Part shown: positions 3,001 through 6,000 of the stretch, piece after piece | Layout: every line of letters starts with the position of its first letter | How positions within the stretch are numbered: position 1 is the stretch's first letter | Position numbers: made by a program | DNA from: Escherichia coli O127:H6 str. E2348/69 | GTDB lineage: Bacteria > Pseudomonadota > Gammaproteobacteria > Enterobacterales > Enterobacteriaceae | DNA length: 64,000 nt | Assembly (NCBI RefSeq): GCF_000026545.1 | Contig: NC_011601.1 | Reading direction: 5' to 3' (one strand)

Positions 3001-6000
3001 TTGGTGTGCCCATCATGATACCAAATGCGTTTTTTTGTGGGTTATACCAGTCTATGACTTTTGCGACAGTGTCTTTATGACCCTGAATTGTCTTGTTTTT
3101 TAAATCAGTAAACTGATTACTTTGGATTCTTACAGCAACGAAATCCCGTTTTATATTGAAAATAGATAAAACTTTTTCTGTAATGTAGTTTTCTTTTATT
3201 AAATCTGCATTTCGATATGATAATAGTTTCGCTGGTGTGGGAGTGGTGGTTATTTTTCTGTTTAACAGTTTTCCTGTTTGCTCTGTTTTTATTAGAGAAT
3301 ATGATGTTTTTTCGTTGCGTAATATGTTACTAATTGATGATAAGCAGTTCTTTATGATTGGCATAATAAATTCCTTGTCTTCATATGGATGAACTTTTGA
3401 TAGGAAGTCTTATATTATATAAACTAATTGCTATCATTTTTGTAGTTAATTGTCTAGTAGAGTTGTCATTTTTTATGTTCTATTCTTATTGATTCTGTTT
3501 AGGCATAGCCATAATGCATGATGGTGTGGCGTGGCAAAGCAGAGATATACAAAGTCTGCCACATGTTTTTATGACAAAAAATTAGCGCAAGAAGACATAA
3601 AATCACCTTGCGCTAATGCTCTGTCTCAGGTCACTAATACTATCTAAGTAGTTGATTCATAGTTACTAGATATGTTGTGTTTTGTAGTATTATGCAGTCT
3701 ATTTTTTAGACTAAATATATTGTAACACATTGATATTAATGGTCTTTAGCGTTTCACGTTCAGCTTTTTTATACTAACTTGAGCGAAACGGGAAGGTAAA
3801 AAGACAAAAAGTTGTTTTTAATACCTTTAAGTGATACCAGATGGCATTGCGCCATCTGGCAGAGTGATTAACTAAATATCGCAGTAATCGAGGCACTCGC
3901 CAGAGAGTGAAAATGAACGTTAAACCCGACCATCGCGCCGCTGGCACCTTCATCGACATCAATACGTTCTACATCCAGCGCGTGAACGGTAAAAATGTAG
4001 CGATGGGTTTCGCCTTTCGGCGGCGCTGCGCCATCGTATCCGGTTTTACCAAAGTCGGTACGCGTCTGCAAAACGCCGTCTGGCATTGCTACCAGACCAG
4101 AGCCAAACCCTTGCGGTAATACGCGGGTATCAGCGGGTAAATTAACAACTACCCAGTGCCACCAGCCGGAGCCAGTTGGCGCATCCGGGTCGTAGCAGGT
4201 GACAACAAAACTTTTCGTTCCCACAGGAACATCATCCCACGCCAGATGCGGTGAAATATTATCGCCATCGTAACCCATGCCGTTAAAGACATGACGATGC
4301 GGCAGCTTATCGCCATCGCTCAGATCGTTACTGATGAGTTTCATTAGAATGCCTCCGGGAAACCTCGGCCTTCAGACCGGGGAGGAAAGGAGGCGGTTTT
4401 CCGACTAACTGTACTTTGCATAATCACATTTTCCTCTTTAGTATGTGAACACATGAAACGCGCATATAAATACCGGTTTTACCCGACAACTGAGCAGGCT
4501 GAGCTTTTAGCTCAGACGTTTGGCTGTGTGCGCTTCGTCTACAATTCCATCCTTCGTTGGCGTACCGATGCGTACTACGAGCGAAAAGAAAAGATCGGTT
4601 ATCTACAGGCCAACGCTCGCCTTACGGCGCTCAAAAAAGAGCCTGAATACATATGGCTGAATGATGTTTCCTGCGTTCCCCTCCAGCAGTCGTTGCGCCA
4701 CCAACAAGCCGCCTTTGCTAACTTCTTTGCCGGACGAGCTGCATATCCGGCTTTCAAAAGCAAACGGCACAAACAGGTGGCTGAGTTCACTGCCAGCGCG
4801 TTTAAACACCGTGACGGCGAGTTGTATATAGCAAAGAGCAAGTCGCCGCTGGATGTTCGCTGGAGTCGAGAATTACCATCTGCGCCGTCAACCGTTACCA
4901 TTTCCAGAGATAGCGCTGGCAGGTACTTTGTTTCCTGCCTGTGTGAGTTTGAACCTGTATCAATGCCTGTTACCGCTAAAACGGTCGGCATTGATGTGGG
5001 CTTAAAAGATTTATTCGTCACCGATACCGGATTCAAAACCGACAATCCCCGCCACACCGCTAAATATGCGAAGCGATTAACGCTGCTACAGCGACGTTTA
5101 AGCAGGAAGCAAAAAGGCTCAAGAAACCGTATTAAAGCCCGCTTAAAGGTCGCCCGACTCCACGCGAAAATCGCCGATTGCCGGATGGACAATCTGCACA
5201 AGTTGTCCCGCAAACTGATTAACGAAAACCAAGTTGTTTGCGTCGAATCCCTCAAGGTGAAAAACATGATCCGCAACCCGAAGCTGTCTAAAGCAATAGC
5301 TGACGCAGGCTGGAGCGAACTTGTTCGCCAGCTCCAGTACAAAGGCAAATGGGCCGGGCGGTCAGTGGTCGCCATTGACCAGTATTTACCGTCCTCAAAA
5401 TGCTGTAGTTGCTGCGGTTTCACCATGCAAAAAATGCCTCTTAATGTTCGTAAATGGCACTGCCCTGAATGCGGCGCAGACCATGATCGCGACATTAACG
5501 CGGCACGTAATATTAAAGCTGCCGGGCTGGCAGTGTTAGCCCACGGAGAGCCTGTAAACCCTGAATCGCAGCACGCGGCTTAGGTTCGGCTCGTTGAAGT
5601 GGGAATCCCCGTCATTCAGGGCGGGGAGCCGTCAAGAGCCCTCCTTTCTTGTTTGCAGAAAGTGTAGCCAGAAACCCTCACGCTGACTTCCCGTTATTGG
5701 CAAAAAAATGTTTCATCCTGCACCGCACGGTTAACCGCTGCGGTCAGACGCTGCAACTGTTGCGGGAGAATAATATAGGGCGGCATCAGGTAAATCAGTT
5801 TGCCAAAAGGCCGGATCCAGACACCCTGTTCGACAAAGAATTTTTGCAGCGCTGCCATATTCACCGGACGAGTGGTTTCGACCACGCCGATTGCCCCCAG
5901 TACGCGCACATCGGCAACCATTTCGGCGTCACAGGCGGGGGCAAGTTGCTCGCGTAGCTGCCCTTCAATAGCCGCCACCTGATGCTGCCAGTCGCCAGAT

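Follow-up and report, generated by a model that had tools for sequence, protein, structure and literature searches.

Leaderless mRNAs are uncommon in Escherichia coli: one map of strain K-12 contains five mRNAs with leaders under 10 nt, three of which encode prophage regulators (PMC4681348), and another E. coli map contains 18 mRNAs whose transcription start site (TSS) falls exactly on the start codon (PMC3415461). Leaderless E. coli mRNAs are associated with mobile elements, as exemplified by λ cI and by tetR of Tn1721 (PMC4681348). Specifically, in λ cI (promoter PRM), Tn1721 tetR, dicA, racR, and ymfK, a σ70 promoter of a mobile element abuts the AUG, and there is no Shine-Dalgarno (SD) sequence (PMC4681348). 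Here we analyze the tnpB gene of an IS200/IS605-family insertion sequence (IS) in a 64,000-nucleotide stretch of enteropathogenic E. coli (EPEC) E2348/69 (contig NC_011601.1), hereafter the window. An initial annotation of this DNA had predicted that tnpB is leaderless or nearly so and had called this layout uncommon in E. coli, a view that the published maps back. In our judgement, it is reasonably probable that the tnpB mRNA starts within 0–2 nt of its AUG, which fits the association of leaderless mRNAs with mobile elements. Unlike cI, tetR, dicA, racR, and ymfK, which encode repressors, tnpB encodes a predicted RNA-guided nuclease, and its transcript is likely a source of guide RNA as well.

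The closest mapped precedent is insQ of K-12 (ydcM, b1432), which encodes the TnpB of IS609 and whose product is 34% identical to the window TnpB over the full length. The sequence upstream of insQ, ...ttTTCACAGaccaaagTATCATttgacctGTG, places a −10 hexamer, TATCAT, 7 nt before a GTG start codon. In the table of leaderless mRNAs published by Kim et al. (2012), ydcM has a TSS at 1501681, the first base of the coding sequence (CDS), with 14 reads and a 5′ untranslated region of 0 (PMC3415461, Table S4). The two genes are alike in having their own promoter-like sequence directly upstream, no SD sequence, and an inverted repeat (TTCACAG...CTGTGAA in insQ) that brackets the −10. They differ in start codon (GTG in insQ, ATG in tnpB) and in the gap after the −10 (7 and 8 nt, respectively). 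In addition, IS609 keeps a divergent tnpA remnant, the yncK pseudogene, whereas the window element has no tnpA. InsQ belongs to a separate subfamily, with no DNA-level similarity to the window element.

Two other described systems resemble the locus in part. The TnpB of ISDra2 belongs to the same protein family as the window TnpB and has the same domain order; in ISDra2, tnpA lies upstream of tnpB, unlike in the window element. No report of the native 5′ end of ISDra2 tnpB was found in the literature searched, and searches combining leaderless with tnpB or IS605 returned nothing on bacterial tnpB 5′ ends. In IS200, the expression signals of tnpA lie within the left end, as predicted for the tnpB element, where structured elements are considered to restrain both expression and activation from outside. 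The IS200 tnpA mRNA differs in that it has a leader with a strong SD sequence and is controlled through masking of the ribosome-binding site rather than through a leaderless start. The same IS family is represented a second time in the window by tnpA of IS200C (48286–48744), whose SD sequence, AAGGGGGT, has a duplex energy of −11.4 kcal/mol, in contrast to the SD-less tnpB.

Promoter-like motif and start codon of tnpB

The ATG at 4453 is the sole in-frame ATG, GTG, or TTG past the upstream stop codon. Residues 1–45 of TnpB align to positions 1–46 of the Pfam profile HTH_OrfB_IS605, such that the protein starts at profile position 1, and the N-terminus coincides with that of the ISDra2 TnpB structures. 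Judged by this homology, ATG 4453 is the true N-terminus of TnpB. The initial annotation's statement that no SD sequence precedes the gene was borne out: the best duplex between the 20 nt upstream of tnpB and the 3′ end of 16S rRNA had an energy of +0.4 kcal/mol, the weakest of the 46 annotated CDS at window positions 1–50000 (median −6.7 kcal/mol). Moreover, the 5′ end of the predicted tnpB mRNA is unstructured in fold predictions, with probabilities of 0.65–0.96 that the AUG is unpaired.

Direct reading of the sequence confirmed to the base the arrangement described earlier, namely TTGCAT, 17 bp, TAGTAT, 8 bp, and ATG. The spacer is within the 16–18 bp that separate the −35 and −10 hexamers of σ70 promoters, and the −10-like hexamer ends 8 nt before the ATG, within the range of ~6–8 nt that characterizes leaderless starts. 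The description of this site as a good σ70 match was overstated in that the site matches the consensus at 7 of 12 positions (TTGCAT, 3/6; TAGTAT, 4/6), although the most informative positions, TTG and T-A-n-n-n-T, are kept. Using a rough σ70 position weight matrix (PWM) built on consensus frequencies, the site scored 8.0 bits and ranked 88 of 127,940 positions (top 0.07%). The window has 11 occurrences of the pattern TTG-N20-TAnnnT, as compared to 28 ± 6 in shuffled sequences, and we estimate the probability that such a site falls by chance 6–9 nt before one given start codon at ~0.1–0.3%. By sequence criteria, the motif taken by itself is moderate, not rare, and is lifted above chance because it is conserved in relatives. 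An alternative −10, CATAAT at 4419–4424, was dropped as it lacks an acceptable −35.

Based on this geometry, the left end of the element would carry its own σ70-type promoter. RNA polymerase would start at A4451, which is position 7 after the −10 and is preceded by C, or at A4453, which is position 9 and is likewise preceded by C. The 5′ end of the tnpB mRNA would then be AC-AUG... or AUG..., that is, a leader of 0–2 nt with no SD sequence, and the mRNA would be translated by the leaderless route from a 5′-terminal AUG. By standard start-site rules, A4451, with a 2-nt leader, is predicted to be at least as likely as A4453 and to be the likeliest start in this copy. We infer the firing of this copy's promoter, its exact start, and the translation of the tnpB mRNA from sequence. 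Since omega-RNA is reportedly derived from the 3′ portion of tnpB transcripts, the tnpB promoter would probably also set the supply of guide RNA.

Conservation of the geometry in two TnpB subfamilies

We gathered 80 related loci from gammaproteobacterial genomes and analyzed 75 non-redundant upstream regions, in which TnpB is 62–87% identical to the query. The homologous start codon, in most cases the sole possible one, served as the anchor for each region. TAnnnT ends 6, 7, or 8 nt before the A of the ATG in 14, 42, and 7 relatives, respectively (63 of the 75 in all), and at any other offset in fewer than 14. Thus, the modal gap is 7 nt, which places the A of the ATG at position 8. Upstream of this motif, TTGnnn ends 29–31 nt before the ATG in 40 of the 75 relatives, corresponding to a spacer of 17 ± 1 bp. 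A MAFFT alignment made blind to the motif yielded the consensus TTGnTA-N18-TAnnnT-GTnAnGC-ATG. The conserved positions are those that weigh most for σ70, and positions 3–5 of the −10 and the spacer are free to vary.

The motif also follows the start codon. In relatives whose TnpB begins one or two codons earlier (MT-KRAY, MKT-KRAF), the promoter motif shifts along with the ATG. Two plasmid copies that are ~80% identical to the window element carry a better −10, TATTAT, located 7–8 nt before the ATG and again without an SD sequence. Among the relatives, neither a conserved SD sequence (family median anti-SD duplex, −1.7) nor a conserved upstream promoter was found. Within this group of transposon nucleases, leaderless placement of the promoter seems to be the rule.

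Loci of the InsQ family on viral contigs have a similar layout: TATAAT, TATCAT, or TAAAAT lies 5–7 nt (mostly 6–7 nt) before the start codon in ~15 of 19 non-redundant regions. Thus, the predicted leaderless geometry is common to two TnpB subfamilies. Together, the conserved geometry of the relatives and the mapped start of the homolog insQ support the proposal that tnpB is leaderless or nearly so.

Three further observations were made among these loci. First, a 1533-bp contig labelled as an uncultured Sutterella sp. metagenome-assembled genome (MAG) (L008, CAJKAP010000026.1) encodes a TnpB that is 99% identical to that of the window, and its 75 nt before the ATG are identical to the window; the contig is probably E. 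coli DNA that was mis-binned into the Sutterella MAG. Second, in one subgroup of the family (L078–L087), the left end is flanked by TTATC rather than (T)TCAT, which suggests that the target motif has changed within the family. Third, on one viral contig (L120), the sequence ...ccggggtttcccggaggcattctgatga lies ~15–60 nt before the ATG of a tnpB of the InsQ family and resembles the left-end tip of the window element in reverse complement, as might result if the two families had inserted next to or within each other.

Alternative explanations and the inverted repeat around the −10

Several points weigh against a start at or next to the AUG. The start at this locus is predicted from the position of the −10, and the favored A4451 leaves a leader of 2 nt; short 5′ extensions lower leaderless translation. 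The site is absent from the output of a consensus scan with a threshold of 9/12, which lists a site on the minus strand instead. The 8-nt gap of the window copy is the less common class, found in seven of the 75 relatives, and the G at position 3 makes TAGTAT weaker than the −10 of the relatives; together, the gap and the G suggest a somewhat weakened version of the promoter in this copy. The counts among relatives come from kin sequences and do not represent independent events. The evidence from insQ is also modest, resting on one TSS of 14 reads in a table (PMC3415461, Table S4) that also has entries resembling processing sites (rpsB, rplD). Moreover, insQ is not among the five leaderless mRNAs of Romero et al. 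(PMC4681348). Finally, ydcM has a second TSS 356 nt upstream (PMC3415461), which falls inside the divergent tnpA remnant yncK (K-12 locus L089, NC_000913.3 1503161–1504908). We argue that the ydcM TSS on the start codon is a real start because a −10 lies in the right place.

The second ydcM TSS bears on an alternative in which tnpB is transcribed from further upstream, with a leader of conventional length and an SD-less internal AUG, and in which TTG and TAnnnT are conserved for some other reason. The upstream TSS of ydcM has 28 reads versus 14 for the one on the start codon, the window contains a weaker upstream site, TTTTCC-16-CATAAT (4397–4424, 5.3 bits), and the inverted repeat brackets the −10 as a hairpin in a leader RNA might. 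We nevertheless consider this alternative unlikely: T-A-n-n-n-T and TTG are conserved at σ70 spacing and track the start codon over shifts of one or two codons, the relatives share no upstream promoter, and a longer leader would still have no SD sequence. In addition, ybhB, the neighboring gene, is divergent from tnpB, so judging by orientation, read-through from ybhB cannot express tnpB, and there is no upstream gene to feed transcription into it.

We give an equally small probability to the view that this E. coli lineage carries the element as an immobile relic, with a decayed promoter and an effectively silent tnpB, the leaderless layout being ancestral and disused. This view accommodates the restriction of the element to one copy per carrier, at one and the same site, the lack of a matching tnpA, the frameshifted copy found in one genome, and the fact that TAGTAT with an 8-nt gap is weaker than the TATTAT with a 7–8-nt gap of the plasmid relatives. 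It is harder to reconcile with the identity of at least 99% in 332 genomes and with the annotation of an intact gene in nearly all of those listed. Moreover, TnpB retains its catalytic and zinc-finger motifs, and the TTG and TA...T core of the promoter motif is kept.

The inverted repeat around the −10 occurs in relatives as well. Perfect repeats of at least 6 bp were present in 24 of the 75, as compared to 3.6 in shuffled sequences and ~11 in arm-swapped controls (a register-free test). Longer ones measure 12 bp (L014), 10 bp (L065, L068), and 9 bp (L060, L073, L086), and L084 is also among the relatives with a repeat that brackets the −10. The arms differ in sequence from one relative to another, as in GCTTACAG/CTGTAAGC, CCCACA/TGTGGG, and CTGTT/AACAG, and the repeat folds with z < −2 in 11 of the 75. 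Column-wise covariation was not significant: 64.5% of cells were paired, as compared to 62.8% of those in shuffled sequences (44 of 500). In the window, the repeat is itself weak, at −4.3 kcal/mol with z = −1, and in this copy its hairpin is not what a read-through RNA is predicted to form. In insQ of K-12, the 3′ arm of the repeat spans the start codon (L089, 3130–3161). The arms in the window, TGTGA/TCACA, were rejected as a site for CRP, whose half-sites would be ordered and spaced differently. A minimal start-stop open reading frame, ATG TGA at 4443–4448, lies within the −10 and discriminator and would be relevant only in a leadered or read-through transcript.

The least probable explanation is that the conserved AT-rich block and the repeat serve mainly as a nucleic-acid structure (a hairpin of single-stranded DNA or of RNA) or as an operator bound by a dimeric protein, or else, in this copy, as an outward promoter for ybhB, and that the likeness to a tnpB promoter is incidental: the excess of perfect repeats and a minus-strand site, TTCACA-18-TGtGATTAT, that overlaps the region speak for such a role, but the covariation and the window repeat are weak, and a hairpin leaves unexplained both the conservation of TAnnnT, which spans its loop and 3′ arm, and that of the TTG outside it. 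Such a role and that of a tnpB promoter are compatible and not mutually exclusive.

The geometry of the repeat places one arm upstream of the predicted tnpB start and the other beside the translation start. Because one arm lies upstream of that start, the hairpin could form only in transcripts entering from outside. In IS10 and IS50, read-through transcripts are inhibited by fold-back, and the repeat recalls this type of inhibition, which we offer as a hypothesis. A broader proposal, which we hold only tentatively, is that the leaderless left-end promoter and the repeat bracketing its −10 are an ancestral, conserved design of tnpB genes with their own promoter in gammaproteobacteria, both IS1341-like and IS609/InsQ. 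The repeat would fold only in read-in transcripts, so TnpB and the TnpB-omega-RNA complex would come solely from the weak promoter of the element, insulated from host transcription.

The mobile element, its surroundings, and implications

The window corresponds to the coordinates of EPEC E2348/69 from 768001, and the positions of the annotated CDS agree. The features of the locus are summarized in the table.

Features of the tnpB element and its flanks (positions in the window)
Feature	Position	Strand	Evidence or remark
ybhB	3868..4344	−	native SD displaced by insertion
TTCAT target / transposon-adjacent motif	4340..4344	+	directly 5′ of left end; filled versus empty site
tnpB-only IS200/IS605-family (IS1341-type) element, 1291 bp	4345..5635	+	empty-site comparison
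Left end, 108 bp, with subterminal hairpin and predicted tnpB promoter	4345..4452	+	
Imperfect left-end hairpin CCTCGG-ccttcaga-CCGGGG	4363..4382	+	candidate TnpA binding site
−35-like hexamer TTGCAT	4416–4421	+	read from sequence; TTG kept at same distance in 40/75 relatives
Outward promoter-like site TTCACA-18-(TGt)GATTAT toward ybhB	4420..4449	−	9/12, extended −10 TG
Spacer aatcacattttcctctt	4422–4438	+	17 bp
Inverted repeat, 5′ arm TCACAT	4424..4429	+	pairs with 4443–4448
−10-like hexamer TAGTAT	4439–4444	+	TAnnnT 6–8 nt before start codon in 63/75 relatives
Inverted repeat, 3′ arm ATGTGA	4443..4448	+	overlaps −10 end and discriminator
Gap gtgaacac, −10 to ATG	4445–4452	+	8 bp
Predicted transcription start, A4451 or A4453	4451..4453	+	−10 geometry, purine-after-pyrimidine preference
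tnpB start codon ATG	4453–4455	+	read from sequence
tnpB, 376 aa, apparently intact predicted RNA-guided nuclease	4453..5583	+	Pfam, NCBIfam, structures
Right-end subterminal hairpin TCCCCGT-cattcagg-GCGGGGA	5606..5627	+	fold; kept in plasmid relatives
Flanking 16 nt GAGCCCTCCTTTCTTG, expected omega-RNA guide	5636..5651	+	inferred from TnpB/omega-RNA architecture

The boundaries of the element were set by the empty site, ...gagtttcat|gagccctcc..., of K-12-like and ST131 genomes. The filled site reads TTCAT|element|GAGCCC, with the element ending in GTCAA and no duplication of the target; the two plasmid copies and most members of the family likewise have TCAT before the left end. Insertion 3′ of a short specific target without duplication and, in place of terminal inverted repeats, subterminal hairpins with similar stems and loops at both ends are features of the IS200/IS605 family. 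No tnpA was found in the element or between ybhB and bioA, and the element is therefore an IS1341-type (tnpB-only) member of this family. The left-end hairpin is similar to that of the right end and to the family consensus, ACCCCGt-N-gCGGGG, and its putative role as a TnpA binding site is drawn from IS608 and ISDra2. The fold z-scores of the whole element ends were not significant.

The element was present, at a coverage of at least 80%, in 381–384 of 5426 complete E. coli genomes, including CFT073, 536, Nissle 1917, NC101, and E2348/69. It lies between ybhB and bioA in all five chromosomal records inspected. The ~80%-identical copies are carried by ~100-kb plasmids at other sites.

TnpB contains the Pfam domains HTH_OrfB_IS605, OrfB_IS605, and Cas12f1-like_TNB and matches the NCBIfam model guided_TnpB with 369 bits. 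Residues 3–369 match the structures of ISDra2 TnpB (PDB 8EXA, 8BF8, and 8H1J; E = 9e-75). The RuvC-like D-E-D residues and the zinc finger that characterize TnpB of IS1341-type elements are intact, with the motifs GIDVG (179), CVESL (263), HDRDIN (344), and CxxC...CxxC (318, 337). The right-end region is conserved in relatives, and the putative guide was assigned according to the TnpB/omega-RNA architecture (PMC10705468). A scan of positions 3400–6200 against Rfam (E ≤ 1) returned only a chance match to a snoRNA and no RNA family at the left end or in the omega-RNA region.

The insertion lies exactly between the ATG of ybhB and its native SD sequence, and the final three bases of the TTCAT target are complementary to the start codon of ybhB. 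Read on the opposite strand, the tip of the left end (4340–4400) provides ybhB with a replacement SD sequence, ccGGAGGcattcta-ATG, with a duplex energy of −9.5 kcal/mol. The outward promoter-like site on the minus strand, which overlaps the tnpB promoter motif, scored 6.9 bits (rank 192) and could drive ybhB or give divergent transcription. In the empty site, ybhB and bioA are on the same strand and separated by 58 bp; the insertion sets them 1.3 kb apart.

Just downstream of ybhB, at ~3764–3790, is cagcttttttatactaacttgagcg, which we take to match the attachment core of phage λ. This sequence adjoins a prophage end with the effector genes espJ (2711–3364), cif (truncated), and nleH. In Nissle 1917, ybhC directly follows ybhB in place of the prophage end.

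Cas12 descends from TnpB nucleases, which are under intensive study, and the literature searched contains almost nothing on the native transcription and translation of tnpB. No usable table from TSS maps of E2348/69, CFT073, or Nissle was found in the literature, and the Cappable-seq supplements searched gave no coordinate for insQ; a differential RNA sequencing (dRNA-seq) dataset for EcN, with TEX+ and TEX− libraries, has been deposited (GSE280463; PMC12226905). In NZ_CP022686.1, the tnpB ATG is located at 4313576. We found no paper describing a leaderless tnpB, though insQ sits unremarked in a supplementary table. If the predicted start is correct, a leaderless promoter in the left end would explain how the elements hold TnpB at a low level that does not depend on ribosome-binding-site strength and would tie the supply of guide RNA to one promoter. 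The annotation of tnpB start codons and promoters could apply the rule that TAnnnT lies 6–8 nt upstream. With such a leaderless start, tnpB would also bring a large and widespread gene family to the very few leaderless mRNAs listed for E. coli and its relatives.

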